DNA from: a virus
Strand: one strand, 5' to 3'
DNA length: 15,563 nt
IMG/VR virus record: IMGVR_UViG_3300045988_111434
Coordinates: 1 to 15,563 of that record
Shown: positions 1 through 15,563 of the stretch, in pieces
Position numbering within the stretch: the stretch's first letter is position 1
How the letters are laid out: each line of letters starts with the position of its first letter
Translations under genes and position numbers: made by a program
The notes under the pieces: generated by a model
Seen by the model: only the letters and a program-made list of their open reading frames with translations
What the model was told of the DNA's origin: nothing
Database searches by the model: none

Positions 1-301
1 AAAGTTACATAGTCCGTACAGGACGGACACTGTTTTCCCCAAAAATACAAACACTTGTTCGATTTTCAGATATTAAATTCGCTACGGAAAACTTGATAGA
101 ACATAAGATGTCAATAGTAATATTGCACAAACATACACCAAAATTTTATGCACTTTTACCATTGATTTTATTAGAATCAGACAATAGAACAATTTATCAT
201 AATTGTATATACAATTCAAACAAAAAGTGTCCGTCCACCGCGGACACAACCTGTCTTTGGTGGGCGAACACTATCGAACACTTGTTTGGTGTGGATAACT
301 A
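1..301. repeat. Left inverted terminal repeat (ITR), 301 bp, perfect reverse complement of 15263..15563
   Basis: I compared bases 1-92 with the reverse complement of the right end by eye. The identical 69-aa ORF translations at 93.. and ..15471 confirm identity through base 299. Identity breaks at 302/15262. The terminus is 5'-AAAGTTACAT; phi29's 6-bp ITR is AAAGTA. Confidence 0.95.
201..216. promoter_or_regulatory. Perfect 16-bp palindrome AATTGTATATACAATT inside the ITR (second copy at 15348..15363); possible protein-binding site
   Basis: Read directly: AATTGTAT|ATACAATT is self-complementary and is present in both ITR copies. Confidence 0.3.
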
Positions 302-409
302 CAAATTACGGTTTAATACCAATTAAGACTGTAAATGATATTGGAATAGCTTTGTTAATATCTGTCGTATCATCCATGCCTGTCCTAATTTGAAAACAAG
401 TATTGCCCC

Positions 410-982: not shown

Positions 983-996
983 TTCTTACTCCTTTC

Positions 997-2079
997 TTAC
1001 TGCACATTATTTTTATACCAATCTGGCGTAGTAGTGCCTAACTGCGTTTTACCCCCCTCGTAGATATAAAATAGGCACGTGTCTCCACTATCTACAGTAG
1101 CCCATGACGGCACTAAAATTTCGTATTCTGTGCTTGTGTTTGGTTTTTTTGGAAAGTTAATCACAGCGGGGTAATATATATTTTTGGTATTATTGTACAC
1201 ACTTGCTCCGCCAAACGCTGGATTGCTTAAAAGATTTACAAGATAGGTAAAATTAGGGTCATCAATATCCACATTTTCTGTCACAAATCGACCTATACGT
1301 TTTGAACCTGTGACTTGTTCCGGTGCGGCATTAAATGTTGCCGAGATAATAGCGCTAATAAAGCGTATAGTAACCTCTGGATAGACAAGGTCATACCAGT
1401 CCATAGCCCCATAGTTATTGTCGCTATGTTCACTTCCCGCGGCATGAACATTAACGTGTCCGTGTTTTTTGATAGGCATCACGTCAACGCTAACATTAAC
1501 GTTTGTTACGTCTCCCTGTATATTAGAAATAGTATTGTTAATTTCCTGTTTATATGTGTTCCATTCATTTTCTATTCGTGTAAGAAAATTTTGTACTTCT
1601 TCGATTAACTGATTAATTCTGTTTATATAATTATTAAATTGTTCATCCCAGTTGTCGATTTTTTGCGACCATTCGTACCACGTGTTTACCCAGTTGCTCC
1701 ATTGTGTTTTCCAACTATTAAAAGTTGATTTCCAACTATTAAAAGTTGATTCCCAACTATTAAAAGTTGATTCCCAATTATTAAAAGTTGATTCCCAACT
1801 GTTCCACGTGTCTACCATGCTATTCCATTCGCTGATAATCTGGTTTAGAAGATTTGTTGCGTCCTCAATAAATTTCTTCTGCGCGTCCGTCAGTTCGTTT
1901 ACCTGTTTAATAAGCTGATTAAGCATAGCGGCAATGCGGCATAATACCTCATAGTACGATAGCGCGTCATCATAAACAAGCGGTTGTGTCTTTTGTAACC
2001 AAAACGCAAAGTCCGGAAAATGTACGTCATAAAGTCCAGAATTTACGTTAGGGTTAAATGGGTCAATTTTGTGTGCCAT
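997..2079 (-). CDS. Tail fibre / appendage-like receptor-binding protein with a Trp-rich heptad-repeat stalk
   Basis: 360-aa ORF with a strong SD (GAAAGGAG) and a TAA stop. It occupies the phi29 gp12 position, after the lower collar. The N-terminal motif PLVYDDALSYYEVLCRIAAMLNQLIKQVN is typical of Firmicute phage fibre anchors. The central region is W-x-S-T-F-N-S repeats followed by a beta-rich C-terminal domain. Confidence 0.6.
   Translation of the reverse strand: MAHKIDPFNPNVNSGLYDVHFPDFAFWLQKTQPLVYDDALSYYEVLCRIAAMLNQLIKQVNELTDAQKKFIEDATNLLNQIISEWNSMVDTWNSWESTFNNWESTFNSWESTFNSWKSTFNSWKTQWSNWVNTWYEWSQKIDNWDEQFNNYINRINQLIEEVQNFLTRIENEWNTYKQEINNTISNIQGDVTNVNVSVDVMPIKKHGHVNVHAAGSEHSDNNYGAMDWYDLVYPEVTIRFISAIISATFNAAPEQVTGSKRIGRFVTENVDIDDPNFTYLVNLLSNPAFGGASVYNNTKNIYYPAVINFPKKPNTSTEYEILVPSWATVDSGDTCLFYIYEGGKTQLGTTTPDWYKNNVQ
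1711..1815. repeat. In-frame 21-bp tandem repeat (4 near-identical copies plus degenerate flanking copies) encoding (W)ESTFNS heptads
   Basis: CCAACTATTAAAAGTTGATTY occurs at 1711, 1732, 1753 and 1774. A degenerate copy is at 1795, and further degenerate copies lie upstream to about 1690. Confidence 0.9.
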
Positions 2080-2092
2080 TTCTTACTCCTTT

Positions 2093-2872
2093 CTACCTCA
2101 TCCAGTCAATAGACAGTCCTAAGTTTCCGCGGTTTCCATAAGCCGCCATATTAAAATCGTTTCCATGTTCAGAAAAATCGTCAAAAATTGACATAAACAA
2201 TTCCTCACAATCAGCAATTATCGCGTTATTGACGTTTACAATGTGCTCACGATACATAATGAGTTCGTTCATCTTACTTCCGCGCCACCCTTTTTCCGTC
2301 CTATGGCTAGTGTCTACGATTGACGTGTTACTGCTCCCTGTGTTTCGTTCGCTGACTGCGCGGCTATCTTCTCCGGTGCTTTGTCCTCTTGTCATACCAC
2401 TCGCATAGTCAGTACCGGAAAAATTAACTTGCGGGTTATCACTGTTGATACGTTGGTCATTAGTGTTACTATTGCTAGTATCACTCATGGTTCGGTCTGC
2501 TTGTGATGTGTTGTTACCGTCACTAGTGTCGGTATCGTCAAACGTCATATTTGTATTTTCTAAAATCTGTGCAACACTTAAATTGCTGTCGTACATTGCT
2601 TTGTATTTAGGCATGTTTCGTGTAAGCGTATCATTAAGCTTAAGCTTAAAAAGACCGATTGTTTCAAACCCGATTTCACACATATAAAAATGGATGATAA
2701 ACATGCGCTCAAATTTCGCTTTGCTTGTCTCATCTCCATTGTACCACGGGTACGTAAAATCAAACAGGTGTGGGCGTCCATTGGCTATTTTGTCGTAAGT
2801 AGTAGCATTTACGTCTTTCCAATCTGTAAAACTTTCGATGTACTCTCTAATTCTGGTTGTATATGTCGCCAT
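2093..2872 (-). CDS. Lower collar protein (phi29 gp11-like position)
   Basis: The ORF-track start at 2893 is a TTG. The ATG at 2872 is preceded by GGGGGTGG. It lies directly after the connector gene. The motif FERMFIIHFYMCEIGFETIGLFKLKL resembles lower-collar proteins of small podophages. TAG stop. Confidence 0.55.
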   Translation of the reverse strand: MATYTTRIREYIESFTDWKDVNATTYDKIANGRPHLFDFTYPWYNGDETSKAKFERMFIIHFYMCEIGFETIGLFKLKLNDTLTRNMPKYKAMYDSNLSVAQILENTNMTFDDTDTSDGNNTSQADRTMSDTSNSNTNDQRINSDNPQVNFSGTDYASGMTRGQSTGEDSRAVSERNTGSSNTSIVDTSHRTEKGWRGSKMNELIMYREHIVNVNNAIIADCEELFMSIFDDFSEHGNDFNMAAYGNRGNLGLSIDWMR

Positions 2873-3737
2873 TTTCGCCACCCCCATTTGCAAGATTTTC
2901 TTTTCGCTCTACACCCAATCCACTGCCGATATATCGTACCTCAACGTTAAGACCGAACAAACGGTTAATTTGCTCGCAAGCGCGTTTTCGCACGCTTAAA
3001 AATGATTGGCGATTGATTAACGTTAGGTCAGCGTCCTGTTCGACTTCGCTTGTAATTAGCCGTTCTTTTTTCGTACCGTCAATATTGCTAATACCAAACT
3101 GTACGCAAAAATCAGCAATTTCTTGTCGCATAGCTGTTGTAATATCTCCAAATACGTTTGGCGGGTTTAAATTTAGCACTTTCATGTTTTCCACATTGCT
3201 AATACCGTCTTTTACGCTAATAAATGGTACAAAATCGTTATATTGTTTAAAGAGGTTTTTTGTACTTAATCGTTGGTTTTCGCTCCCCGCTATAACTACA
3301 GGTGTCCTTTGTGCATAGATATTAAGATTTCTCGTCATTCTCATGTTAGCCAAACTTTCCGCATACATCTGTACATAATCTACGCTCGGATAGCCCACAC
3401 TGCTATCCCAGATAATGACGCTGTTATTTTTCCCCAGTGTCTTAAAATACTGCTGTGCATAAGCAAATCGCATGTTTGGCACGCCGTAAATATCTACAGT
3501 GCCGCCGAGGTTGGTTTTCATTACGGCGTATTTTTCCACTACGTCGTCCTCAAAAAAGACCGCCTGTCCCCACCAAAAAAGGTAATCTTCCAACACGCGC
3601 GGCGGGATTTCATCTGGAAGTCCTGCCCATTCAAAACGATTCACAATCATTTCGTGCAACATATTAAAATAACGTATATAATAGTTGCGATATTGTGGCG
3701 TACTGAAATATTCAGCGTCCTTTGATTGTCCTTTCAT
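2847..3737 (-). CDS. Head-tail connector / upper collar (portal) protein, phi29 gp10 family
   Basis: Blocks align with remembered phi29 gp10. [16 protein letters not shown] matches [44 protein letters not shown] matches [38 protein letters not shown] matches [25 protein letters not shown] matches ACEKINELYGLNVKV. The size, 296 aa versus 309 aa, is similar. Confidence 0.9.
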   Translation of the reverse strand: [296 protein letters not shown]

Positions 3738-3755
3738 TTTTCTACCCCCTTTCCG

Positions 3756-5441
3756 TTAATTATTTGCTAAACTATAATTACCAATGTCATTAGTGTGCCA
3801 TATTGTCACACCGCGGTCAAATATTGACCGTAAAATAACAAGGTAATCAAGGTCAATGTTACCGCTGATTGTGCAATTACGTGTTTTGACAAAATCCCAC
3901 GCCGTCCGATTATTGATAGCGGGCGTTCCGATTTCGCCAATTTTATAACCAAACATACTAAAGTAGTCATCAATTTTTCGTGCGTACTCTGCACGTATCT
4001 GCATAGGGTAGTAGCTTATGTGGTCATTACCGATAATCTTACTAGCGTTTCCGCTTGATGTCGTAACATTACCGCTCGGCTGTAGATAATGATTGACTAC
4101 GGATTTAATACCGTCTCCAATAACTTCTGACCAATCGGTACTGCTAAGTGTGGCAAGTGGACTAGACTTAAAAGCTTCACTCGCGGCATCTTTTCCGGTT
4201 GCTAAAGTATTCCCCGTAGCGCTAGCCGCCGCACCCAAAAATCCAAAGCCCGCGCCACTTAACGCTTTTCCAACTCCGCTAAATACTCCGGCAGCAGTGT
4301 CTACACCTTGAGATACTGCGTCGCCCGCACTCATTAAAGCGCTAGCGCCCGCCGTGCTTGTCATCTGTGCAATATATGCCTTGTAGGCGTCTGTCATGAT
4401 TGCGCATTTAGGATAATCCGAAAAAGTTAGCATATCTGTGTAATCTTGTGCGAATCCTTTATACTGGATTGGGTAAGATACTAATAAGGGGTTAGGTGTC
4501 ATTGCTACTGTGTAGGTAAAACTACAAGCATCACTTGAAAAGTATTCGTATTTATATTCGATACCTGTACCGTTATTATTATTTCCGTACAAAAAATTAT
4601 ACGGATAACAAAAAAGCTTTTTGTTTTTCGGAACATAACCATCTATATTGTCATATTTTTTAGGCAAATTTAATTGTTTGAACTGTGTTTCCTCTGCGAT
4701 AAAGCTTGTTGGCATCATAAACGCATTTAAAATGCCGTCAATAGTGCCGTTAGCATTAGCGGAAATCAAAAACTCGCTTACACCGTCGCCGTTGTCAAAA
4801 ACATTAAAAGTGATAGCGGTATAAATACCATCACGGAATTCGCCTCCGTTAAAATTGCCGCTCTCGTCAAACGCGCTAGGAATTACTACACTCATAATAT
4901 TTCTATCGCTCAATTCTGGCGCGTCGTAATTTTGCTCGGTTTCTTGCTTTACAATATAGTCTCCGGTTTCCAAACCCTCCGGAAACGTGTATCGCCCAAT
5001 AACGTCATCACTCTTTTTTACAATCTGTCGTTCGATATAGCATTTGTTTAGTACCATATCGAATTGACAGTTTGTCCAAACGTCCATAATAAAATGTACG
5101 CGGCACGAATTAACTGATAATGGTTCTACGCTTGTAATAAAGCCATATTCCCAATTATCCATATAGCCTACATTTTTAAATGCAATATAGTTAGCACTAT
5201 CTGCATACAGTTCGTTAACAGGCGCGGCAAAATCCGCATAGCCTCTTTTGACTGGTGCGGCATTATCAGTTCTATAAATTGCTTTGCTATCAACATAAGC
5301 AAAAAGTTCTTCGCGGCTGTTGAAAAGACGAACATGATTATAGGACGAATCCCACGGAATCCCGCGGCATATTCTAACCTGTGCTACAGGCGCTATTCCA
5401 TCTACGTTTTTTTGTGTTGGCATCGGTATCATGTTATCCAT
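3756..5441 (-). CDS. Tail knob / distal tail tube protein, phi29 gp9 family
   Basis: 561 aa versus 599 aa in phi29. The N-terminal blocks VRICRGIPWDSSYNHVRLFNS and YIAFKNVGYMDNWEYGFITSVEP...VHFIMDVWTNCQF parallel gp9's [21 protein letters not shown] and YIMFQNADYGNKWFYAFVTELEF...VHFEIDVLQTWMF. It sits between the capsid and connector genes, as in phi29. Confidence 0.8.
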   Translation of the reverse strand: MDNMIPMPTQKNVDGIAPVAQVRICRGIPWDSSYNHVRLFNSREELFAYVDSKAIYRTDNAAPVKRGYADFAAPVNELYADSANYIAFKNVGYMDNWEYGFITSVEPLSVNSCRVHFIMDVWTNCQFDMVLNKCYIERQIVKKSDDVIGRYTFPEGLETGDYIVKQETEQNYDAPELSDRNIMSVVIPSAFDESGNFNGGEFRDGIYTAITFNVFDNGDGVSEFLISANANGTIDGILNAFMMPTSFIAEETQFKQLNLPKKYDNIDGYVPKNKKLFCYPYNFLYGNNNNGTGIEYKYEYFSSDACSFTYTVAMTPNPLLVSYPIQYKGFAQDYTDMLTFSDYPKCAIMTDAYKAYIAQMTSTAGASALMSAGDAVSQGVDTAAGVFSGVGKALSGAGFGFLGAAASATGNTLATGKDAASEAFKSSPLATLSSTDWSEVIGDGIKSVVNHYLQPSGNVTTSSGNASKIIGNDHISYYPMQIRAEYARKIDDYFSMFGYKIGEIGTPAINNRTAWDFVKTRNCTISGNIDLDYLVILRSIFDRGVTIWHTNDIGNYSLANN

Positions 5442-5456
5442 GCTTTCCTCATTTCT

Positions 5457-5477
5457 AGGGGAGCATTACACTCCCCT
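5457..5477 (-). other. GC-rich stem-loop (AGGGGAG-7 nt-CTCCCCT) between the capsid and tail-knob genes; possible RNA stabiliser or partial terminator
   Basis: 7-bp perfect stem read directly. There is no U-tract downstream on the coding (minus) strand; the T-run lies upstream of it. Confidence 0.3.
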
Positions 5478-5487
5478 CAAAAATCAA

Positions 5488-5503
5488 TGTTTCACGTGAA
5501 ATA
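5488..5503. promoter_or_regulatory. parS: parS-like site, 15/16 match to the consensus (TGTTTCACGTGAAATA)
   Basis: One mismatch (C to T at 5502) relative to the three perfect copies. It lies immediately after the capsid gene's TAA stop. Confidence 0.6.
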
Positions 5504-5504
5504 T

Positions 5505-6782
5505 TTACTGATTGACTGTGACTGTGCCTGTACCGCTGATTGTGCTATTATATCTGGATGTTGCTTTGACTGTAAGCGTCGCCGCTTTTTCGTCATTTGC
5601 AATATGCAAGATATTTGAGCCAGGAATAAAGGACGTATACTGACTAGTTGCGCCATCGACGTCAAAGTCAAGCATTTGCGGCGTATACTGGCTTGTTCCG
5701 CTCGCTAACGCTGTAATTTCAACATCAGTTCCAACGTTTCCGGCTGTGTCTGTAACACTTACAGTTGTGAGTCCGACTGTATCTGTCGTGAAAACGATAC
5801 AAGGGAAAAACGGCGAATAAGAAAACATTTCAGACATAGTGTAGAAATAATTCCATGTCAGAGCCGCACCATTTCTGGAATCTGTCAGTGTCCGGAAATT
5901 CTCGCGCACATTGAAAAATCTCATATCGAACAGCGCAAGCTTGATATTAGAGTCATCGAACTTGTCGATGATAATTTTGCGAACGTTAATATCAACCTTG
6001 TCCATATTAAACGCCGTCGCAAGAACCTCAACGTCTAATTCCGCGTCTATCTCCGGTGTCGTGATGTAAAAGATAGTCTGGTCATTCGCACAACTATCTG
6101 CACCTGCAATGTTGTACTCTGGGTGCGGGAATTTCATCTGCCCGATGTACGATTTGACAAGTTTTGTCAATTTCTTTGCGTTCTCCGCGTTTGCCGTAGG
6201 GTCTGCAATATTAACTGCGTAAAGCTGGTCTGCCGCACTTGCGCTCTCAATCAAACGCTTCATGCACAAATATTCATCCCAGTTCGCCGCCGCAAAAAGC
6301 GACTGCACTTTTGCGTTAATCAAATCGCGCACGCCGTACTCCGATTTAAACGCCGTACGTAAGTTGTCAAACGTGACTGTAACTGCGTACTGGATAGCCG
6401 GTGTTATCTTATGGTAAGCCGCCATGACGCTTGACTGGTAATAAGCATATAATTCTGCTACAGTTGCAAACTGGTTAAACTGCTTACCCTTTGCCATGTT
6501 AACAAAGATTTCTTCCTCTGTTCCGCCATAACGCATAGGGTCTCTCTTAAGCACTCCCAGAGGATTCTCAAAAAAGACGGTTTCGATTCTCTGCTCCATA
6601 ATCTGTTCAACTAATGCATTAGCAAACGCGTTTCTCAACGGTACAATATTAAGCAAACTCTCGTAGATACTCGAGATATTCTCCGCTGTCGCTTTCGGAA
6701 TCCTTTCACGATATTCCAAACTCTGCATTGACCTCACAGCATTTAAAATAGCTTCGTTTGTAGCCGCTACCTTGTTATCCAT
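5505..6782 (-). CDS. Major capsid protein, phi29 gp8 family, with a C-terminal Ig-like (BIG2-type) domain
   Basis: [28 protein letters not shown] parallels gp8's [58 protein letters not shown] parallels [30 protein letters not shown]. The C-terminal region of about 90 aa is beta-rich (TVSVTD...VTVKATS...GTVTV). Strong SD (AAAGGAGAG). Confidence 0.85.
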   Translation of the reverse strand: [425 protein letters not shown]

Positions 6783-6799
6783 TTTCTTCTCTCCTTTCT

Positions 6800-7090
6800 T
6801 TACTCTGTACTACCATCAAAATCAAGCATTTCCGGCGTTACATCTTCGGTAACGCCCACATCTGCTACAGGATCTTCTATGTCCTTGCTAGGCATTTCCT
6901 GACCCGTCAGCATTTCTCCAAAACGCGCAATGTACTTTTCGCGCAAGTCCTCATAGCGCTCTTTGTACCCATCGTCAGATACGTTTGCGCCGCTTCTGAT
7001 TGACTCCGTAATTACATTGATTTCTTCGTCTAATTCTTCCGGCGCGTCGATTTTTCCTAAGATAGCTTTTAAAGCTTCTTCTGCTGTCAT
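6800..7090 (-). CDS. Putative scaffolding protein (phi29 gp7-like size and position)
   Basis: 96 aa, highly acidic and predicted helical, immediately upstream of the capsid gene. SD GAGGTAAAAGAA before the ATG. Confidence 0.55.
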   Translation of the reverse strand: MTAEEALKAILGKIDAPEELDEEINVITESIRSGANVSDDGYKERYEDLREKYIARFGEMLTGQEMPSKDIEDPVADVGVTEDVTPEMLDFDGSTE

Positions 7091-7095
7091 TTCTT

Positions 7096-8241
7096 TTACC
7101 TCACTTTCCCTAAAAATGGTTTTAGATAATATATAAAAGGCGTTTTTCTCCCGCTCGGAACGGGCGACACACCTAATATATTGATTGGAACATCTTGATA
7201 AACATTAACATCATCATTGATATAAAAACGTAAAACAATACGCGTTAATGCTGTGTTTGCAATTTTTATGTAAACGCTGTTGCCATCTTTTCGATACAAG
7301 CTAGCACCGCTAGGTACTCTAACACTCCATGCTCTATTAGCTGATACCATAAATCGTACTACAGTATTAACATTAGCCGTCTGGCTATAAGGCGTTACGC
7401 GGATAGACGGCGCCGGTGGCGCGGGTCTGTTAATACCAATCTGGCATTGCGTCTGTATACTAGCATCATCTATAAGCCAAAAGGCTATGGCTGTTGTAAT
7501 CTGCGCGGCGTTTGCATTTCCGCTGACTACAAGCGCGCCATCAGTTTTTTCTACAAGTGAGAGATACTGCCCCAAGTTGTACGTCCATTCTCCGCTCGCG
7601 TTAACGTTAATAGTAAGAGTATCCCCATCTACAATACTAGCACTGATTGGCGATATAGTCAAGCTTTTTCTTTCAATCGGCGCAGAACCATTAAAAGTAT
7701 CGTAAATATCTTGAGAGTAAGCATAACGTTTATCTTGCACTTCTTGTCCTTGTAGGGTTGGATTCTCAAAATAAAATAATACATGATTGCTTGCGGCGCG
7801 TATATCTGTTGCGTTTTGCAAAACTGACAAAGTGTCATTATATCCATGCGTTTCTAGCTCCGATTTAAGATATGCTAATGCTAAATCTATGTTTCCAATG
7901 CTGTCATAATTTCCGTTTTTCCACATATTATACAAAGCTTGCTTTCGGGAATAATACGACCATTGCGCTAATCCATATCCGGGTTTTCCCTCATAGAGTC
8001 CACCATTGACAAAAGCGTTCTCGCTTACCACTCCGCTATCAACATCTTTAGTATAATTTTTACTTGCCAAAAACTTATTAGTGCTATTGTTATCTTTTTC
8101 ACATCTATAAGGCACTATTCCACTCTCTGCAAATAAGTTACCCATCATCGCCGCTACGCCTATAGGGTTATTTATGTACGTCATTAAATTATCCCACACC
8201 GCTTTACTATATCCATAGTCTACATAATCACTCAATGCCAT
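7096..8241 (-). CDS. Putative virion-associated peptidoglycan hydrolase (phage tail lysozyme-like N-terminal domain) with two C-terminal Ig-like beta modules
   Basis: The N-terminal motifs GVAAMMGNLFAESG ... GYGLAQWSYYSRKQAL resemble the phage tail lysozyme family. The C-terminal half has two beta-rich modules separated by RPAPPAPS. Confidence 0.5.
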   Translation of the reverse strand: MALSDYVDYGYSKAVWDNLMTYINNPIGVAAMMGNLFAESGIVPYRCEKDNNSTNKFLASKNYTKDVDSGVVSENAFVNGGLYEGKPGYGLAQWSYYSRKQALYNMWKNGNYDSIGNIDLALAYLKSELETHGYNDTLSVLQNATDIRAASNHVLFYFENPTLQGQEVQDKRYAYSQDIYDTFNGSAPIERKSLTISPISASIVDGDTLTINVNASGEWTYNLGQYLSLVEKTDGALVVSGNANAAQITTAIAFWLIDDASIQTQCQIGINRPAPPAPSIRVTPYSQTANVNTVVRFMVSANRAWSVRVPSGASLYRKDGNSVYIKIANTALTRIVLRFYINDDVNVYQDVPINILGVSPVPSGRKTPFIYYLKPFLGKVR

Positions 8242-9309
8242 TTACATCAACCTCACACTCAATATATCCAACACAATATTTTTGCATTTTAAATCCTTAA
8301 ATCTTAATAGCCCCATATCATAAGACCTCTTTAAATAGTCATAAATAAAAGACTTGCTCGATAACATCAGCGTATCTGCATTATGACTTGATGGGTCAAA
8401 AGTAAAAACATATCTCGCGTTCGGGTCTGCTGTATAGTCAATATAAACTATACCTTTTTCCGGATATTCCCTCACAGCGAAACGGTCTTTCCCGCATACA
8501 AGGGTAAAAATATAGTTGCTGTTGCCACTGATTTTCTCAACAAAAGCCGTTGCGTCGCACAGATACGTTCCATCTGCGCTAGATTTTTGGTATGCACTAT
8601 TGCTAAAAACTTTTGTCAATCCGCTCTCATTGATAGCTTTTTGTGCGTCCTTATTAACGGTAAACTGCGCCACCCAACCGTTGCCGCGCAAGAATTTTGT
8701 GTTATCACGCAATCTCTTATGTATGCCAAAATAGATAAAATAGGGGTTAAGCAAGCTAACATAATTTGCTAACATGTAGACAGGCACTTCCCGCACTTGC
8801 TTGCCCTTACCTCTACAAATACTCCGCAATACACTCTCAAATTTTGTAATCTCATTTCGCAAATATCCGTTATTTTCAAGCACAAATTCGTCAAAAACAA
8901 TCAAATTAACCTCTTTAAACATCGGGCTATATTTCTTAATTTTATCGGAATTACTAAAATATACCGCATATCCAAGCACGCCTTGGTTGTCCTCTGCATC
9001 ATGTAAAATTAAAGCACTAATAAGCCCTTTTACTACACTTTTGTTAGTAACAACTTTTCCGTATTCTGGATAAATCTCCAACACATCTTCATACATCTTT
9101 CCACTGCTTGCTATTTCATCCTGTGTACGGTATAAAAAGACAACTTGCGAACCGTCCTCTTTATGATTATTCAAGCTTTCAATCAGCAAAGCCGTTGTTT
9201 TTCCGGCACTTCGATTGCCAATAATCATACGCAAAATCGGTTCACAACCGTCTAAATCTTTTACACTTTTAATTTCATCTAAATTATAATAAGGTTTTGT
9301 AAACTTCAT
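8242..9309 (-). CDS. DNA encapsidation (packaging) ATPase, phi29 gp16 family
   Basis: Walker A is GNRSAGKTT and Walker B is LIVFDEF. The size, about 355 aa, fits. The ORF-track start at 9324 is a TTG. The ATG at 9309 (MKFTKPYYN) follows a GGGGGGAATAAAA SD. Confidence 0.85.
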   Translation of the reverse strand: MKFTKPYYNLDEIKSVKDLDGCEPILRMIIGNRSAGKTTALLIESLNNHKEDGSQVVFLYRTQDEIASSGKMYEDVLEIYPEYGKVVTNKSVVKGLISALILHDAEDNQGVLGYAVYFSNSDKIKKYSPMFKEVNLIVFDEFVLENNGYLRNEITKFESVLRSICRGKGKQVREVPVYMLANYVSLLNPYFIYFGIHKRLRDNTKFLRGNGWVAQFTVNKDAQKAINESGLTKVFSNSAYQKSSADGTYLCDATAFVEKISGNSNYIFTLVCGKDRFAVREYPEKGIVYIDYTADPNARYVFTFDPSSHNADTLMLSSKSFIYDYLKRSYDMGLLRFKDLKCKNIVLDILSVRLM

Positions 9310-9328
9310 TTTTATTCCCCCCAAAAAA

Positions 9329-9399
9329 CTAGCGCGGCGGGAATCGAACCCGCATTGATAGAATTAAAATCTATTGTTCTGCCGTTAAACTACACGCCA
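9329..9399 (-). tRNA. tRNA with anticodon UUA (predicted ochre/UAA suppressor, tRNA-Sup-TTA); acceptor features resemble tRNA-Gln
   Basis: Hand-folded cloverleaf. Acceptor UGGCGUG/CGCGCUA with two G-U pairs. U8. D arm GUUU-AACGGCA-GAAC with G18G19. Anticodon arm AUAGA-UUUUAAU-UCUAU with U33 and A37. Variable loop is 4 nt. T arm GCGGG-UUCGAUU-CCCGC. Discriminator G. The anticodon lies at 9365..9367 (plus strand TAA). CCA is not encoded, and a T6 run follows. Confidence 0.85.
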
Positions 9400-9403
9400 A
9401 TAA

Positions 9404-9419
9404 TGTTTCACGTGAAACA
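9404..9419. promoter_or_regulatory. parS: Perfect parS consensus site TGTTTCACGTGAAACA, within the 22-bp palindrome 9401..9422
   Basis: Exact match to the ParB/Spo0J consensus TGTTNCACGTGAAACA. It overlaps the holin stop codon and lies 5 nt upstream of the tRNA. Confidence 0.75.
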
Positions 9420-9743
9420 TTAAGAAATCTTTTCTAAAATAGACCGGATTTTTTCGGGTACTAAGTTTTTGTTTATTCTCCCGACATTTTCCAAAATCGA
9501 GCCAATCTCCATAAGGGTAATATAACTACACATTGAATAGGAAACCGGAACGGTAAAACCAAGGTCAAGATAACTCTGCCCCCAGTCAATGAGTACGGCG
9601 CATGCAATCACACAAACAGAGCCGAATTTGTTAAAAAGACCTTCTCTCATGATTGAGGAATTAAAGTTTTTGTTTTTTACCGCCATCACGATTCCAGACA
9701 CAAAATCCAGAACCATAAATAAAAAAGTAATTAAATAAATCAT
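9420..9743 (-). CDS. Holin (LL-H / TcdE-like Phage_holin_4 family)
   Basis: 107 aa starting MIYLITFLFMVLDFVSGI, from the ATG at 9743 after AAGGGAGAGGAAAAAAGG. It has hydrophobic segments plus the family-typical ...YITLMEIGSILENVGRI..VPEKI tail. The ORF-track extension to 9887 starts at a TTG and covers structured noncoding sequence. Confidence 0.75.
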   Translation of the reverse strand: MIYLITFLFMVLDFVSGIVMAVKNKNFNSSIMREGLFNKFGSVCVIACAVLIDWGQSYLDLGFTVPVSYSMCSYITLMEIGSILENVGRINKNLVPEKIRSILEKIS

Positions 9744-9844
9744 CCTTTTTTCCTCTCCCTTATTTATTTTAGAGGTTCGCCGCCACCCTTGCGGACACCA
9801 CTCCGCGCCCCTGCGTTTTTCCGCATGGTGTACGGGACTTAACG

Positions 9845-9960
9845 GGATGGCGGGTAATACTCCATTATGGACTTTGAGCGGACACAAACAAACAAAATAA
9901 GAGGAATTATGAAAGTTATCTCAAAGCCCATAATGCAATACACCCGCCTACCCGCCATCC
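9845..9960 (-). ncRNA. Candidate structured RNA: 116-nt extended hairpin (12-bp and 16-bp helices) in the 333-nt noncoding gap upstream of the holin
   Basis: 9845..9856 (GGATGGCGGGTA) is the exact reverse complement of 9949..9960. 9863..9878 pairs with 9920..9935 over 16 bp. The single non-Watson-Crick position is G-U on the minus-strand transcript but A-C on the plus strand, which favours minus-strand RNA. Confidence 0.35.
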
Positions 9961-9966
9961 ATCGGC

Positions 9967-9972
9967 ATTATA
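9967..9972 (-). promoter_or_regulatory. Candidate -10 box (TATAAT) of a late promoter lacking a good -35 element
   Basis: The minus strand reads ...GCATTGCACAGCATTAAATGTTGTATAATGCCGATGG. The predicted start falls at the 5' edge of the 9960..9845 helix. No TTGACA-like hexamer occurs at 16-18 nt spacing. Confidence 0.25.
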
Positions 9973-10076
9973 CAACATTTAATGCTGTGCAATGCCGATA
10001 AATGCCATTCAATGACATTCTACTGCATGCATGTTGTTTCATGCGGTTGGATGGCAGATATGCGGTTTATCATTAT

Positions 10077-10505
10077 TTAATTGTCATCTTCGTCAAAGTC
10101 CATATACGGTTCTGCTTCAACAAGTTCGCGTACATTGATAGCCTTGAGATACGCTGACTGGAATTTCTTAGACTTGTACCGCCCGTCCATCTGCTCGCGG
10201 ACGCGGATGGTTACTGCCGAACCATTGCCGATTTTGCGCAATTCCTCGATGTTTTCGTCATCGTTATCTGTTACCACGGGTTCGCCCTGCATGTAGAGAT
10301 TGACCGGATATTTTGTGTGCGCCTTGTATAACACCTTGCCATCAAGATTACCTTCGCCATCCTTTAACGGATTCTCAACCTTTGCGTCGTACACCTCGCG
10401 GAGTTCTGCCGCTGTTTTCTCATCAATCTCGATTAAAATTGATACATCATTGTCATCTTTAACAAAAAGATTTCTTACGATTCCTCTGATTTTTCTGCTT
10501 GCCAT
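10077..10505 (-). CDS. Putative single-stranded DNA-binding protein (acidic C-terminal tail)
   Basis: 142 aa in the early region, with a C-terminal DFDEDDN tail typical of SSBs and a beta-rich core. There is no direct family recognition. Confidence 0.4.
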   Translation of the reverse strand: MASRKIRGIVRNLFVKDDNDVSILIEIDEKTAAELREVYDAKVENPLKDGEGNLDGKVLYKAHTKYPVNLYMQGEPVVTDNDDENIEELRKIGNGSAVTIRVREQMDGRYKSKKFQSAYLKAINVRELVEAEPYMDFDEDDN

Positions 10506-10543
10506 TGTTTTTATTCCTTTCTTATTTAAGATTTGTTAGTTAA

Positions 10544-10559
10544 TGTTTCACGTGAAACA
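10544..10559. promoter_or_regulatory. parS: Perfect parS consensus site TGTTTCACGTGAAACA
   Basis: Exact 16-mer with palindromic AA..TT flanks (10542..10561). It lies between the stop of the 99-aa gene (10566) and the start of the SSB-like gene (10505). Confidence 0.75.
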
Positions 10560-10565
10560 TTTGTC

Positions 10566-10865
10566 TTACTTGGAAGCCTGTGTAGACTCTGCCGTTGCAG
10601 ATTTACGATTATTCCAATCCTTTTCCGTCATGGAGTGCGCCATGAAATCCTCGTAGGAAATGTAGCGCTTTTCCTCTGTTCTGCCGGATTCGATGAACTG
10701 GATTTTTTTGCCGGAGTACTTCTTCTCGATTTCCTTTTTGGTAGCCGTGTCAATATCGTCCGCTAAATGCAGATGATTAAGAATTTCAATCCCCTTGTTC
10801 GGAGTTACCGTTACGACGTCATAGTCTACGGATGTCGTGACCGTTCTTGTGAATGGTGCTTTCAT
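10566..10865 (-). CDS. Hypothetical early protein
   Basis: 99-aa ORF with SD AGAGGAACAACACA before the ATG and a TAA stop. No recognisable motif. Confidence 0.6.
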   Translation of the reverse strand: MKAPFTRTVTTSVDYDVVTVTPNKGIEILNHLHLADDIDTATKKEIEKKYSGKKIQFIESGRTEEKRYISYEDFMAHSMTEKDWNNRKSATAESTQASK

Positions 10866-10945
10866 TGTGTTGTTCCTCTCTTTCTTTTTTGTTTTGCTTG
10901 ATTTCTGTGGGCTTGTTTGAAATGTTGCTTGCCATCATCAGACGC

Positions 10946-10983
10946 AAGGTTGCAACCCTTGTACGTGACGCCCGTTAGGGCGT
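10946..10983 (-). other. Two adjacent hairpins after the 62-aa gene: ACGCCC-GTTA-GGGCGT and the near-palindrome AAGGTTGCAACCCTT
   Basis: Read directly. They begin 6 nt after the TAG stop. No U-tract follows on the minus strand, so this is not a canonical terminator. Confidence 0.3.
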
Positions 10984-10988
10984 TTCGG

Positions 10989-11177
10989 CTATTCCTGTTC
11001 GCTTAACAATAATGAGTTTTTATAAAAACTTAAAACTTCAAAATTTTTGTATTTATAAATCATGTCTAACGCCTGTCCATAATCCCATTTAATACCGCCT
11101 AAATGATTATATCTAATACTTAATACTGTGTCTGGTTTCCATTCTGCGTTTGCTGTGAATAAATCAAATAATGTCAT
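10989..11177 (-). CDS. Hypothetical early protein
   Basis: 62-aa ORF with SD GCGAGGAAACCACA before the ATG and a TAG stop. It is the first full-length gene downstream of the tandem-repeat leader. Confidence 0.55.
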   Translation of the reverse strand: MTLFDLFTANAEWKPDTVLSIRYNHLGGIKWDYGQALDMIYKYKNFEVLSFYKNSLLLSEQE

Positions 11178-11254
11178 TGTGGTTTCCTCGCTTTCTTGTT
11201 TTTGTGTTTTATTGTTTTTATCTTCCTTACATTATTTATTATACGCTTGCTTCT

Positions 11255-11314
11255 CTATTTTCTTGTGTCTACTGTGCCGTACTTTTTTACCTTTTCATAA
11301 AATGTTCTTCTCAT
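11255..11314 (-). CDS. Possible 19-codon leader mini-ORF (MRRTFYEKVKKYGTVDTRK), copy 2
   Basis: ATG at 11314 preceded by GCGAGGAAACAAAC; TAG stop at 11255. Identical to the copy at 11377..11436. Expression is unproven. Confidence 0.25.
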   Translation of the reverse strand: MRRTFYEKVKKYGTVDTRK

Positions 11315-11376
11315 GTTTGTTTCCTCGCTTTCTTGTTTTGTATCTCCCTTACATTATTTATTATACGCTTGCTTCT

Positions 11377-11436
11377 CTATTTTCTTGTGTCTACTGTGCC
11401 GTACTTTTTTACCTTTTCATAAAATGTTCTTCTCAT
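11377..11436 (-). CDS. Possible 19-codon leader mini-ORF (MRRTFYEKVKKYGTVDTRK), copy 1
   Basis: ATG at 11436 preceded by GCGAGGAAACAAAC; TAG stop at 11377. Confidence 0.25.
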   Translation of the reverse strand: MRRTFYEKVKKYGTVDTRK

Positions 11437-11481
11437 GTTTGTTTCCTCGCTTTCTTGTTTTGTATCTCCCTTACATTATCT

Positions 11482-11509
11482 ATTATACACTACTTCTCTA
11501 TTTTGTCAA
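11482..11509 (-). promoter_or_regulatory. Consensus sigma-A type promoter: TTGACA - 16 nt - TATAAT
   Basis: The minus strand reads TTGACAAAATAGAGAAGTAGTGTATAAT (-35 at 11504..11509, -10 at 11482..11487). It lies 15 nt downstream of the polymerase stop. In repeat units B and A the -35 equivalent is TAGACA at 22-nt spacing, so those are probably weak. Confidence 0.6.
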
Positions 11510-11524
11510 CTATTATTTTTAAAA

Positions 11525-13708
11525 TTATTCAGAAAAATTTATGCATGAACCTAACACCGCCGCGTATTCGTCTGATATACCTAGCGTATATGTGGTATCT
11601 ACGATAGCTATGTTAGACGCTGTGGTAAACTCACATTCTTTTCCTGTATAATCTTTTACTTTTATAGTATGTATATTGCTCTCGTTAAAATAAGACACTG
11701 TACGCCCAGAATCTATAAAAATTTTGCCAATTTTAAAATCATCTAAACCATTTCCTCGTGCTAATTCTGCCGCTCCCTTTGATTTTGATAGACCGGATAC
11801 AGTAACATGCAAAACATCCTCTGTTTTCCCTGTTTTTTTGTTTTTCTCGGACGCTATGTATGCGTACTTTTTAGCTCCCAAAGTTTTAAATTTTTTGTAG
11901 TATCCGTCATCGTCCCATACACCGAGCGTATAACGCGTAGTAGTGCCATCATCATTAACACGTTCACTGTAGTTTCTATACTTTTGCTTTTTGGATAATA
12001 AGTAATTATTTCTATCTTCAAATGATTTTAAGTGCTCTTTATTTATAAATTTTACGCTGTCAGTATCTGCATAAACAAAATCATAGCCGCAAGCGTCAAT
12101 CATGCACTGTAGTTCATACCGCGCGTTTGCCGTAATGTATACACCCCATTGATATAGCAAAAAAGAGTTTTTGCTTGCGGCGTAAGCCGCTATAGCACTC
12201 TCTTCGTCCGGCATTGACTTAGTCCACTTCCCATCTATGTATTCTATCTCGCCTTGACATATGTCTGTTACCATTGCGCCAAAAATAGCATTTAATTTAT
12301 TCTTGCTTTTTGCGTACTCGTATTCTTTTCCGTCGACATCCTTAAGTTGTGTTTTTTTGTCGTACCAAGCTAACATTATATCAACTATTGGTTGTGGCAA
12401 GTAGTCTTTTTCTGCCTTATAACCCTCTAGCCACTCTACACGCTCGGTATCATACTTATATTGATTGTTAATAATTAAAAAGTCTAACTCTGTACATGCA
12501 TATATTATCCAATCGGCAGATAATACGCGCCCGTTATCATTTACATAATTTTTGCTATATGCAATGCAGTGCGCAAAATCAATATATGGGACAGTTACAT
12601 CTTCCCGCACTTCTAGGTCAAAAAGAGTTATACGCATTATAATAGCGTTTTTCTCTTTACAGCAATCTAGTATAAGCCTATCGAAAGATTGTGGCTCGTA
12701 TTTAACAAACGGTGTCATAGGATATAAATCAGACGCTATACACGCGGGATAGCTAGATACCCTATCCATGCTATATACATCGTTTATTATTGCGTCCGCA
12801 TAATAGCGTGACGCGTGAGTATTGCCGCCCCTAAAAGCTTGCCGTAAAAGCTTGTAAATCGGTACAGTAGGCATAAGCATTTCAAACAGTTCTCGATACT
12901 CTGGATATTTGCGACATTCTGCGCGCATTGCACGACGTACATAACCTGTCGATGTGAGAGGTATCGTAGCTAATGTATCGCATTCATCATCTAACTTTGA
13001 TAAAATGCACTCTTCTAAACCTTTTACATCGTTATAGCAATACGCTAATTCTTCTTGCGTCATCGGTGTTATCGGTGTACGTACTTTTCTGTAATCATAC
13101 GTATCTACCAGTTTGTAATGTGTGCAAAATTTGCTATTTTCGCAAAATTTAGCTAAAGACATATTTGACAAAAAGTAACTACATCTAAATTCAAAAAAAG
13201 GTATTGCAGATGTTTCACGTGAAACATTTCCAATTTTATTTATACCTTTCTCATAATCGCTTTCCAAACAAGCTAACAATTTAATAACCTTGTGCGCTTC
13301 TCGCGCAAAAAGAGATTCTATATGCAGAAAATCCTTTACAAACATAAACTCATAAGCTAAATTATGCACATATATTACTAGCACTTTATTAGCGGCTAAT
13401 TCAAGCGCTATGCCTAAATTATGCATAAACTTTAGCCATTCTTCCCAAGTTCGCCCAAAACAAACTTTCCCATTTAAGCAAAATTGCCAATGATACATAA
13501 ATGCTTCTGGATTTTCTCCATCTATTGTAGTGCTTTCTATGTCAAACGTTGCCGGAGTTGCTATGTATGTAAGTCCATTTCTGCCTTTTTTCCTCACTGT
13601 AGTACAACCTAAAGCTATAGCGTCATACGGATATGACGCTACACTGTAAACTATCTCTTCTTCTACTGTTTCTTTTCCATTTTTTGTCTGTGCTACTGAT
13701 ATTACCAT
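11525..13708 (-). CDS. Family B DNA polymerase, protein-primed type (phi29 gp2-like)
   Basis: Exo I is FDIESTT, Exo II is VHNLAYEF and Exo III is YCYNDVKGL. Motif A is MDRVSSYPA, motif B is KSKNKLNAIFGAM, motif C is YADTDSV, and the KxY motif is GAKKYAY. Strong SD AAAGGGGAG. It co-occurs with ITRs and a gp16-type ATPase. Confidence 0.95.
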   Translation of the reverse strand: MVISVAQTKNGKETVEEEIVYSVASYPYDAIALGCTTVRKKGRNGLTYIATPATFDIESTTIDGENPEAFMYHWQFCLNGKVCFGRTWEEWLKFMHNLGIALELAANKVLVIYVHNLAYEFMFVKDFLHIESLFAREAHKVIKLLACLESDYEKGINKIGNVSRETSAIPFFEFRCSYFLSNMSLAKFCENSKFCTHYKLVDTYDYRKVRTPITPMTQEELAYCYNDVKGLEECILSKLDDECDTLATIPLTSTGYVRRAMRAECRKYPEYRELFEMLMPTVPIYKLLRQAFRGGNTHASRYYADAIINDVYSMDRVSSYPACIASDLYPMTPFVKYEPQSFDRLILDCCKEKNAIIMRITLFDLEVREDVTVPYIDFAHCIAYSKNYVNDNGRVLSADWIIYACTELDFLIINNQYKYDTERVEWLEGYKAEKDYLPQPIVDIMLAWYDKKTQLKDVDGKEYEYAKSKNKLNAIFGAMVTDICQGEIEYIDGKWTKSMPDEESAIAAYAASKNSFLLYQWGVYITANARYELQCMIDACGYDFVYADTDSVKFINKEHLKSFEDRNNYLLSKKQKYRNYSERVNDDGTTTRYTLGVWDDDGYYKKFKTLGAKKYAYIASEKNKKTGKTEDVLHVTVSGLSKSKGAAELARGNGLDDFKIGKIFIDSGRTVSYFNESNIHTIKVKDYTGKECEFTTASNIAIVDTTYTLGISDEYAAVLGSCINFSE
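13211..13226. promoter_or_regulatory. parS: Perfect parS consensus site embedded in frame in the polymerase gene (codons N161-T166, NVSRET)
   Basis: The 18-bp perfect palindrome ATGTTTCACGTGAAACAT at 13210..13227 lies between Exo II and Exo III. Confidence 0.7.
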
Positions 13709-14241
13709 AAAGTTCTCCCCTTTACATAAACATGTGTTGCGCTAGAATATTCTTGCAATTCTTGCTGTATCTCTGTATGCGTTTTCCCTTGTGAAAAAAG
13801 CAAATCATAGATTTCTATAATATCTTCCGACGGATTACGCATTTTTAAACTTTTGTATTCTTGACTATGCAGAAAAGTATAAAAATCTGCTTCATTTAAT
13901 AAATTTTCTGATACACCTAAATCGCGTAATGCTTGCGTGCGCTCTTGTCTTATTTCCCTTATACCAGTTAAAGTATGGGAGCGCGCTGTGACAAAACGAA
14001 CTAGCTTGAGATACGCCCGTGAATTATACTTGTCAATATCCCAATCCGTCCTCTTGTGCAACACATTTAATACACTTTCTTTCTCCAAACCTTGCTTTTC
14101 AATCCGTGCTTTTTGCTTGTTTGCTAACGGCACGAGTTGCTTGTACATCTCGCGCCGCTGTTTCCCCCGCAAACTTAAGAGGTAGTCCTTGTTATACATT
14201 GCGCAAATGCTCGGACGCAAACGTCCAAGCGATACGCTCAT
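13702..14241 (-). CDS. Putative terminal protein (assigned by position)
   Basis: 179-aa basic protein directly upstream of the polymerase start, overlapping it by 7 nt, the same arrangement as phi29 genes 3 and 2. The ATG at 14241 has a GGAG SD. An alternative ATG at 14199 overlaps the upstream stop. No sequence motif was recognised. Confidence 0.4.
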   Translation of the reverse strand: MSVSLGRLRPSICAMYNKDYLLSLRGKQRREMYKQLVPLANKQKARIEKQGLEKESVLNVLHKRTDWDIDKYNSRAYLKLVRFVTARSHTLTGIREIRQERTQALRDLGVSENLLNEADFYTFLHSQEYKSLKMRNPSEDIIEIYDLLFSQGKTHTEIQQELQEYSSATHVYVKGRTLW

Positions 14242-14449
14242 TTAGGCGCTCCAATACGTCATAATAATCGTCTTTACGCTCGATTATTACAGCCACGATG
14301 ATATTCACGCCATTATTTACGCACACGCAAAATGTTAAACCTAAAGAGCCGTCACTATAAGGACAGGCACTATCAAAAAGAACATCATCCCACTTTTCAT
14401 GCACGTTTTTCACGATAAAACTTTTAATTTCTTCCTGTGTTCTTGTCAT
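14192..14449 (-). CDS. Hypothetical early protein
   Basis: 85-aa ORF with a strong SD (GGAGGGATAAA) before the ATG, one base after the endolysin stop. Confidence 0.6.
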   Translation of the reverse strand: MTRTQEEIKSFIVKNVHEKWDDVLFDSACPYSDGSLGLTFCVCVNNGVNIIVAVIIERKDDYYDVLERLNERIAWTFASEHLRNV

Positions 14450-14450
14450 T

Positions 14451-15170
14451 TTATCCCTCCGTTATAATAGCCTTGAACCCCGCACTCTCAAGTGCTACTA
14501 ACAAATTGTGCGCATTTTCGAGATTGTGGAAAGCGCCCTTTTGATAGAGCACTGATACACGATAAATTTTATTCGTATCAGACTTTTCTGCTACATCTAA
14601 TTCATCATCCGGCATTGACGGTTCGTTCGTTGACACTGTAATGCAACGCTTCCCAGTGATACCGTAAACAATAGCCGCCGCCATTTCCTCTGAATTATAT
14701 AGTGATACGTCTTTATCAGACGACACAAAGCAACACTCAATTAGCATAGCCGGCGCGCTTGTACGCCGTAAAAACGCAAGCTTACTGTTTGTTTTAACTC
14801 CACGATTGCGAAAACCAAGTGAGCATATAGCATTTAAAGTTTCCCTTGCAGTGCTTACTGCTTGTGACCTGTCGGAGTATACATATACTTCTGCCCCGCT
14901 TGCCTGCGCGTTAGACGCAGAATTAAAATGAATTGATACATCCAAGTCAACTTTGTGTACGTTGCATTTTCTAATAATACGATTTAGTACATCGGATTGA
15001 GATATACCATCTTCTACCGTACAATCATATACAGTATGACCCATACGTCGTAATTCGTCCACCACTAAGTCTTTGACGCGTCTATTTTCAATCGACTCTG
15101 AAATAAGACCCACTGCACCACAAGCTACCTTTCCGTGCGGGTTATGCCCCGCGTGTACATTGATTACCAT
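14451..15170 (-). CDS. N-acetylmuramoyl-L-alanine amidase (Amidase_3) endolysin with a short SPOR-like C-terminal module
   Basis: Motifs are NVHAGHN...E...GH.V...DLDVSIHFNS...GAEVYVYS...RNRGVK...APAMLIECCF, resembling clostridial phage Amidase_3 endolysins and CwlC. The C-terminal IYRVSV..GAFHNLENAHNLLVALESAGFKAII resembles a SPOR repeat. SD AAGAGAGGAAAAATAA. Confidence 0.8.
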   Translation of the reverse strand: MVINVHAGHNPHGKVACGAVGLISESIENRRVKDLVVDELRRMGHTVYDCTVEDGISQSDVLNRIIRKCNVHKVDLDVSIHFNSASNAQASGAEVYVYSDRSQAVSTARETLNAICSLGFRNRGVKTNSKLAFLRRTSAPAMLIECCFVSSDKDVSLYNSEEMAAAIVYGITGKRCITVSTNEPSMPDDELDVAEKSDTNKIYRVSVLYQKGAFHNLENAHNLLVALESAGFKAIITEG

Positions 15171-15190
15171 TTATTTTTCCTCTCTTTCTG

Positions 15191-15216
15191 ATAGACTATT
15201 TCTATCTATAGTCTAT
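15191..15216. promoter_or_regulatory. Operator-like inverted repeat ATAGACTAT - 8 nt - ATAGTCTAT overlapping the -10 and start region of the right-end promoter
   Basis: 9-bp perfect arms at 15191..15199 and 15208..15216. The inner arm overlaps the -10 hexamer by 2 nt. Confidence 0.45.
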
Positions 15217-15243
15217 TATAAACATAGAGTATAATTTTGTCAA
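15215..15243 (-). promoter_or_regulatory. Perfect consensus sigma-A promoter TTGACA - 17 nt - TATAAT driving the early operon
   Basis: The minus strand reads TTGACAAAATTATACTCTATGTTTATAAT (-35 at 15238..15243, -10 at 15215..15220). It lies 20 nt inside the right ITR boundary and 45 nt upstream of the endolysin ATG. Confidence 0.7.
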
Positions 15244-15262
15244 TCAGAACTTGTGTTTGTAT

Positions 15263-15563
15263 TAGTTATCCACACCAAACAAGTGTTCGATAGTGTTCGC
15301 CCACCAAAGACAGGTTGTGTCCGCGGTGGACGGACACTTTTTGTTTGAATTGTATATACAATTATGATAAATTGTTCTATTGTCTGATTCTAATAAAATC
15401 AATGGTAAAAGTGCATAAAATTTTGGTGTATGTTTGTGCAATATTACTATTGACATCTTATGTTCTATCAAGTTTTCCGTAGCGAATTTAATATCTGAAA
15501 ATCGAACAAGTGTTTGTATTTTTGGGGAAAACAGTGTCCGTCCTGTACGGACTATGTAACTTT
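15263..15563. repeat. Right inverted terminal repeat (ITR), 301 bp
   Basis: Reverse complement of 1..301. It ends exactly at the window end, which implies a complete linear replicon. Confidence 0.95.

Follow-up and report, generated by a model that had tools for sequence, protein, structure and literature searches.

Four copies of parS, the site at which the partition protein ParB (Spo0J) binds bacterial chromosomes, are scattered over the genome of a phi29-like podophage represented by the IMG/VR virus record IMGVR_UViG_3300045988_111434 (positions 1 to 15,563; this whole stretch of 15,563 nt is referred to below as the window). The same site recurs in related phages and is under strong selection throughout the family. 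Host ParB very probably binds the phage sites and, as a further step that we hold with less confidence but still favor, this binding would serve the inheritance or positioning of the phage genome. Host parS sites on phages of the phi29 group are already known, and the phage in the window is a distant addition to that group; what we describe is the first evidence we have found of such a device being conserved across an uncultured family of gut phages. The four sites, none of which is assigned to a strand, are the following:

5488..5503, parS with one mismatch, TGTTTCACGTGAAATA, 1 nt past the capsid stop codon (5505-5507) and 46 nt before the gp9-like tail gene
9404..9419, exact parS, 0 nt past the holin stop codon (9420-9422), 3 nt upstream of a tRNA and ahead of the packaging ATPase gene
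10544..10559, exact parS, 6 nt past the stop codon of a 99-aa gene (10566-10568) and 38 nt before the SSB-like gene
13211..13226, exact parS, inside the polymerase gene at codons about 160-165, in frame as N-V-S-R-E-T

The three exact copies read TGTTTCACGTGAAACA, which is the exact universal chromosomal consensus of the ParB site (PMC7022226), and the copy at 5488 differs from it at a single position. Measured against TGTTNCACGTGAAACA, the consensus of the chromosomal ParABS centromere (Livny 2007, as cited in PMC7022226 and PMC10197239), the window contains three exact matches to the 16-bp palindrome and one with a single mismatch, that is, about one site per 4 kb. An A at position -1 and a T at position +16 extend the palindrome in all four copies, which were grouped as one 21-nt repeat family (D5). 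The motif search reproduced the three exact copies and the near-exact one reported in an earlier sequence-only reading of this DNA, and the chance expectation given there, about 7e-6, agrees with the value of about 6e-6 exact palindromes per window that we obtain from base composition. In 200 dinucleotide shuffles of the window, with up to 3 mismatches allowed, the mean number of matches was 0.14 and no shuffle reached 4. That reading also placed the three intergenic copies within 0-3 nt of stop codons, at operon junctions. The adjacency to stop codons holds, at actual distances of 0 (holin), 1 (capsid) and 6 nt (99-aa gene). The description as operon junctions is not borne out: scanning of the window detected no promoter-like or terminator-like sequence at the sites, and the next gene or tRNA follows after 38 (10544), 3 (9404) and 46 nt (5488).

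A polymerase-based scan of IMG/VR yielded 70 related genomes, with polymerase identities of 32-88% and main groups near 87%, 72% and 45%. The search for the same 16-mer in relatives that the sequence-only reading had proposed gave a clear answer, namely, 124 exact copies in the 889,759 bases of these genomes, against 0.0003 expected, at positions conserved within clades. At least one exact copy is present in 51 of the 70 genomes, at least two in 46, and at least three in 24. Relatives in the clade of the window carry the three exact sites in the same places, two at the corresponding gene junctions and one at the corresponding polymerase codon. The 10544 site is exact in all 28 close relatives whose DNA covers the junction (the close relatives number 29: L001-L029, L047), and the 16-mer at 9404 is identical in 10 of 11 aligned genomes, with one mismatch in L020, next to a tRNA that varies. 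At the post-capsid junction, the site is exact in L010 and L015, carries one mismatch in L003, L014 and L026 and two in L006, L008 and L012, and is missing in the other relatives; judging from this series, the 5488 site is real but in decay. In the clade at about 45% polymerase identity, one site is located at about codon 15 of the polymerase, in the same reading frame as the internal site of the window and likewise encoding V-S-R-E-T, and a second one just before a 379-aa gene; three or four different junctions are used in L059-L063. Site positions are thus conserved within clades and differ between clades, which implies that sites were gained repeatedly, with independent placement in different clades.

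Selection on the DNA sequence is also discerned at the 13211 site, which lies within a protein-coding region. Across 29 genomes, the synonymous third positions of its five codons are almost invariant and the encoded peptide is (N/D)-V-S-R-E-T, against a gene-wide third-position entropy of 0.71 bits in the polymerase. The 16-nt window of the site has the 16th lowest entropy of 2180, and the protein segment flanking it carries indels. By these patterns, the parS sequence is kept by selection at the DNA level. That the sites arose by chance, or are neutral leftovers of DNA captured from a host, could be argued from the relatives that lack them; this is refuted by the excess of exact copies, the frozen synonymous positions in the polymerase gene and the lack of any host-like flanking sequence common to the copies, and we assign it a negligible probability.

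The pattern of variation bears on whether the conserved element acts as a protein-binding site or as a nucleic acid structure. Among 90 distinct 36-nt contexts, the core is invariant, and the flanks favor AAA 5' of it and TT 3' of it. Each of the 22 variant forms has lost the palindrome through changes on one side only, and compensatory pairs are never seen; this pattern indicates that a protein binds the site and speaks against a hairpin. A hairpin in RNA or DNA, whether serving as an intrinsic terminator, for processing by an RNase or as a cruciform, would fit the location of the sites directly past stop codons, their A-rich 5' and T-rich 3' flanks, and the predicted RNA hairpins of -7 to -9.6 kcal/mol at three sites. 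Nevertheless, the predicted hairpins at the four sites are weak overall (-3.6 to -9.6 kcal/mol), the stem is AU-rich and is not followed by a U-tract, the terminator scan called none of the sites, and the fold of the mismatched site is no more stable than that of shuffled sequence (z = +0.59). In addition, the ACGT loop is as invariant as the stem, with no compensatory double changes in the 90 contexts, and one of the sites lies in the middle of an essential gene. We therefore regard a hairpin as highly improbable. A rho-independent terminator in particular was rejected, the sites having neither a GC-rich stem nor a U-tract nor covariation.

If a protein binds the sites, it could be encoded by the phage or by the host. 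Comparison with PHROGs and Pfam identified no ParA, ParB or helix-turn-helix family in any ORF (open reading frame) of the window and no recognizable sequence-specific DNA-binding domain in its proteins, apart from a marginal p6-like match. A self-encoded ParABS system, with ParB and usually ParA encoded beside parS, is not present in the window, and no accessory protein family is distributed among the clades in the way that the motif is. By this evidence, the phage apparently provides the cis element alone and encodes neither ParA nor ParB. The alternative is that the 16-mer is the operator of a phage regulator, for example, a small unannotated protein, and merely resembles parS. Candidates can be named, given that small ORFs of 62, 85, 96 and 99 aa are without an assigned function and that sites are located upstream of the SSB-like, ATPase and tail genes. 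The small unannotated proteins are, however, confined to the 27 closest genomes, whereas the 16-mer is kept in clades at 38-46% polymerase identity and is found also in genomes of inoviruses and of Bacillus and Clostridium phages, where none of these proteins is present. Moreover, a coincidental exact match to a 16-bp host consensus is implausible, and the 38 nt that separate the site from the next start codon, ribosome-binding site included, cannot accommodate a promoter. An operator is, accordingly, very unlikely. One invariant 16-bp site common to unrelated phages can be explained only by a highly conserved host protein. Host ParB recruitment to chromosome-type parS, which was the core idea of the sequence-only reading, accordingly appears sound, with the identity to the consensus (PMC7022226), the family-wide conservation, the absence of a phage binder and the phi29 precedent (PMC2731898) all pointing in the same direction.

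The closest known parallel is phi29 itself, in the work of Meijer and co-workers as summarized in PMC2731898. The phi29 sites are targets of Spo0J, and segregation of the phage genome into the prespore depends on Spo0J (PMC2731898); Spo0J binding and spore trapping have been demonstrated for phi29 only. Like the phage in the window, phi29 is a protein-primed linear podophage of 15-19 kb that lacks partition genes and carries several chromosome-type parS sites, some within genes and some directly past stop codons, such as the site at 17243, next to the gene 16 stop codon at 17242; its host belongs to the Firmicutes, as that of the phage in the window probably does. The differences are substantial. 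Identity to the polymerase and capsid proteins of the Bacillus phi29-type phages is only 22-29%; the genes of the window are all on one strand and its terminal repeats span 301 bp, compared with 6 bp in phi29; and the site is TGTTTCACGTGAAACA, which is fully symmetric, where phi29 has the TGTTCC variant. In the latter phage, TGTTTCACGTGGAACA (the reverse complement of TGTTCCACGTGAAACA) occurs four times, along with one degenerate site. The four copies fit the B. subtilis consensus TGTTNCACGTGAAACA exactly, contrary to the description of the phi29 sites as degenerate in the sequence-only reading. With three exact and one near-exact site in the window, compared with four and one in phi29, and with the phi29 sites not degenerate, there is no ground for the suggestion that ParB recruitment is stronger in the phage in the window than in phi29.

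The chromosomal ParABS centromeres share the identical 16-bp palindrome and its presence in multiple copies, but lie near oriC at a few per megabase, in contrast to the far denser sites of the window, which have no adjacent parAB. P1, N15 and the actinobacteriophages with parABS resemble the phage in the window in that centromere sites on the phage genome would support extrachromosomal inheritance; they encode their own ParA and ParB and have a private parS, whereas the phage in the window encodes neither and uses the site of the host. The podophages of C. perfringens (phiCP7R, phiZP2, phiCPV4, CPS2 and the CPQ series) are, likewise, small, phi29-like and virulent, with multiple parS sites, but differ in gene order and strand organization and in that the sites form pairs 25 nt apart. 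In phiCP7R (L209, NC_017980), four exact and three one-mismatch sites, more than in the window, are distributed over 5096-12148, three times as such pairs and mostly in intergenic gaps. Place counts from BLAST give 5-7 sites each for phiZP2, phiCPV4, CPS2, CPQ1-10 and cpx, and the genome paper on the C. perfringens phages does not mention parS. Among other cultured relatives, B103 has two sites, and HM2, CH17P1 and CS229P1 have one each. What these cultured phages, phi29 and phiCP7R included, have in common with the window is limited to the core phi29-like genes.

Beyond these phages, the exact 16-mer was found in at least 120 IMG/VR stretches; among the matches listed, 27 of 120 are phi29-like podophages of several lineages. 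A BLAST search with the flank-extended parS matched 460 of the 50,697 GenBank phage records, including phages of Microbacterium (62), Arthrobacter (34), Gordonia (25) and C. sporogenes (30), as well as Lactobacillus and Pseudomonas, usually with one or two sites per genome. Many of the matching records named Listeria phage LM 4-11-1/4-14-1 are fragmentary contigs and may be host DNA. The 5.9-kb circular inovirus Bajarodino virus 6 (L212, PQ006135.1), which has an annotated Zot gene, carries six exact sites, four of them 0-20 nt past stop codons, and several related inovirus and microvirus records from rodent feces also match the flank-extended site. Inoviruses typically persist as episomes and, as a group, are non-lytic. 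This episomal persistence, together with the six sites, fits a role in inheritance and suggests that capture of the host centromere may also be used by small phages that infect chronically.

The taxonomic spread of the site also bears on a link to sporulation. B. subtilis, C. perfringens and Hungatella, the cultured hosts of parS-bearing relatives, are spore formers, and among 11 cultured phi29-like phages, parS seemed to be tied to spore-forming hosts. We dropped this as a general rule because parS is found also in phages of Actinobacteria, Listeria, Lactobacillus and Pseudomonas; Microbacterium, Arthrobacter and Gordonia form no endospores. A general role in segregation or positioning fits better than a spore-specific one.

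A plausible course of events would be as follows. After injection, host ParB dimers would nucleate at the phage sites, and CTP (cytidine triphosphate)-bound ParB clamps would spread across much of the 15.5-kb genome, so that the phage DNA would act as an extra centromere. ParA (Soj), perhaps together with SMC, would then position and partition the phage DNA with the origin region of the host. A genome whose lytic program is delayed would pass to daughter cells, with persistence or a carrier state as the putative benefit, and if the host sporulates, the phage DNA would travel into the forespore, as demonstrated for phi29.

Several observations weigh against inheritance as the function of the sites. 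No site within 2 mismatches is present in 14 of the 70 related loci, and none within 3 mismatches in the GenBank relatives MT836155 and MT835998. The sites are, therefore, dispensable and have been both gained and lost. No substitute palindrome was found in the parS-negative relatives, including these two; the sites appear to be beneficial, not essential. The phi29-like phages 44AHJD (S. aureus) and Cp-1 (S. pneumoniae) also lack the site, and both of these hosts have ParB. Spo0A boxes (TGTCGAA), which phi29 needs for the pause before lysis and which in its strategy lie at early or late promoters and at the ends of the genome, number 6 in that phage, with 3.1 expected, but are missing from the window, where 1.9 are expected, and are depleted in the family, with 82 against 132 expected (TGNCGAA: 538 against 536). 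No mechanism for delaying lysis is visible in the window. Spore trapping of the phi29 type, raised in the sequence-only reading, thus retains its first element, several parS sites without a ParB of the phage's own, and loses the second, the Spo0A boxes. Finally, a polymerase-profile scan of species-representative genomes produced 7 hits, all distant and all on contigs of metagenome-assembled genomes (MAGs) from Clostridia, Eubacteriales, Cellulosilyticum and similar taxa, with no close relative and no isolate match, so that a carrier state is inferred and no direct sign of one is seen in these genomes.

The same observations give some room to benefits of ParB binding other than inheritance. 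Host ParB could bind the sites for compaction or resolution of the replicating phage DNA by ParB and SMC, as roadblocks or silencing at gene junctions that time expression, or for titration, in which hundreds of amplified genome copies would draw ParB off the host origin. Three of the four sites in the window and most of those in the relatives are intergenic and directly past stop codons, as they are also in phiCP7R and in the inovirus, and could punctuate transcription; to this can be added that there is no Spo0A-box system to pause lysis and that no contigs of a carrier state were found in isolate genomes. On the other hand, intergenic gaps are the sole unconstrained space in a compact genome, sites within coding regions exist too, and no promoter-like sequence adjoins the sites. 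Furthermore, phi29, the only case studied experimentally, points to segregation (PMC2731898), and the six-site inovirus comes from a non-lytic group in which take-over of the host is unlikely. We consider these other benefits rather unlikely as the function of the sites and favor inheritance or positioning.

The host of the phage is probably a member of the gut Clostridia. Hints on its identity, which qualify any reading that invokes the host ParB, are limited to the distant relatives in Clostridia and Eubacteriales MAGs and to the endolysin, whose nearest named cellular relative is an amidase from a Roseburia sp. MAG (53% identity); neither the 7 distant hits nor this amidase is sufficient to name a host. 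Gut Clostridia possess ParABS, and their origin-proximal parS sites have been located with the same consensus, allowing up to 2 mismatches (PMC10197239).

The genome that carries the sites is of the phi29 type, in agreement with the sequence-only reading: inverted terminal repeats, a type-B polymerase, a phi29-type capsid protein, a connector with collar proteins, a gp9-like tail protein and a gp16-type ATPase. It is a complete linear genome of 15,563 bp whose termini are perfect inverted repeats of 301 bp, and all its substantial ORFs are on the minus strand. Genes were assigned with PHROGs, Pfam, Rfam, ARAGORN, and promoter and terminator scans. The main features are:

1..301, no strand, left inverted terminal repeat (repeat analysis, 100% complementary)
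15263..15563, no strand, right inverted terminal repeat (repeat analysis, partner of 1..301)
14451-15170, minus strand, Amidase_3 endolysin
13702-14241, minus strand, candidate terminal protein of 179 aa
11525..13708, minus strand, protein-primed type-B DNA polymerase with the internal parS (phrog_1907, E 5e-56)
10566..10865, minus strand, gene of 99 aa, weakly matching the p6-type double-stranded DNA-binding family (phrog_6370, E 9e-4; no Pfam match)
10077-10505, minus strand, SSB-like protein
9420..9887, minus strand, holin (PF05105, E 1e-19)
8242-9324, minus strand, gp16-type packaging ATPase
5505..6782, minus strand, phi29-type major capsid protein (phrog_2006; PF25622 Phi29_MCP)

From right to left, the gene order is endolysin, candidate terminal protein, polymerase, a 347-nt non-coding stretch, the 62-aa and 99-aa ORFs, SSB-like protein, holin, tRNA, packaging ATPase, tail lysozyme, a 96-aa ORF and capsid, followed by the gp9-like tail protein, both collar proteins (upper and lower) and two further tail-end proteins. 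No near-identical genome, and none similar at the DNA level, is present among the GenBank phages. Among cultured phages, the closest in polymerase protein are Clostridium phage HM2 (43%) and Amedibacillus phages (41%), and the closest in capsid protein are Hungatella and C. symbiosum phages (about 31%). The terminal repeats are long for a phi29-like phage (6 bp in phi29, 236 bp in Cp-1), and each of them contains GC-rich hairpins followed by T-runs.

Several non-coding features of this genome deserve mention. The 347-nt stretch downstream of the polymerase gene (11178-11524) includes three 122-bp tandem repeats that are 98% identical and, on the minus strand, a promoter that is perfect, TTGACA-16-TATAAT (11509..11482); another perfect promoter is located at 15243..15215. 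No Rfam family of pRNA (packaging RNA) matches the window at E <= 1, and the 11178-11524 region could contain the middle or late promoter or an unrecognized packaging RNA. Between the 62-aa and 99-aa ORFs, at 10923-10990 on the minus strand, there is a full-length, sub-threshold match to the type II hammerhead ribozyme (30 bits, where the gathering score is 37; whole-window E = 0.011), with the catalytic core CUGAUGA...GAAA intact; in 10 relatives, no hammerhead match exceeds the threshold. The segment between the 5488 site and the start of the tail gene (5441-5487, minus strand) contains a GC-rich hairpin, GGGGAG-TGTAATG-CTCCCC, with no T-run after it.

The tRNA gene next to the 9404 site (9328-9400, minus strand; Rfam tRNA score of 63 bits) has the anticodon UUA according to ARAGORN and is an ochre (UAA) suppressor. 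In the same position, L001, L003 and L015 encode tRNA-Gln(UUG), and UUA suppressors occur on two backbones, one common to the window and L010 and the other in L029; the anticodon loops are abnormal (6 or 8 nt) in L008, L012, L020 and L024. TAA is the stop codon of 13 of the 17 phage genes. With TAA readthrough, the packaging ATPase ORF would continue in frame into the tail-lysozyme ORF (window 8241-8244) and the gp9-like tail ORF into the connector ORF (window 3738-3758), in both cases with at least 200 codons without a stop codon. Given the ochre-suppressor tRNA, these in-frame fusions may or may not be a coincidence.

The principle at work here is not new; rather, an old one is generalized. 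For twenty years, the parS and Spo0J story of phi29 has been a single-system curiosity, and in the openly accessible literature we found no report of host-type parS on phages without ParB beyond the phi29 group. The same device is now seen under strong selection in a whole uncultured phage family of the human gut, and cultured, tractable carriers, namely, the C. perfringens phages, C. symbiosum phage CS229P1 and Hungatella phage CH17P1, make it directly testable. The persistence of strictly lytic phages in dense and fluctuating communities, that of the gut among them, calls for an explanation, and a recent survey in which thousands of lytic phage genomes accompany clonal bacterial assemblies proposed no mechanism (PMC12768965). 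It is possible, although we advance this only tentatively, that centromere capture is a general, convergent trick of small phages that have neither lysogeny nor partition genes. The gut phi29-like podophages, the C. perfringens podophages and the inoviruses are candidates, each of which might attain plasmid-like vertical inheritance, spores included, through a 16-bp cis element alone. Should hijacking of ParB confer inheritance, parS would be a simple sequence marker of carrier-state potential, and inferring from gene content that a phage is 'virulent' would have to change, for example, in the choice of therapeutic phages.

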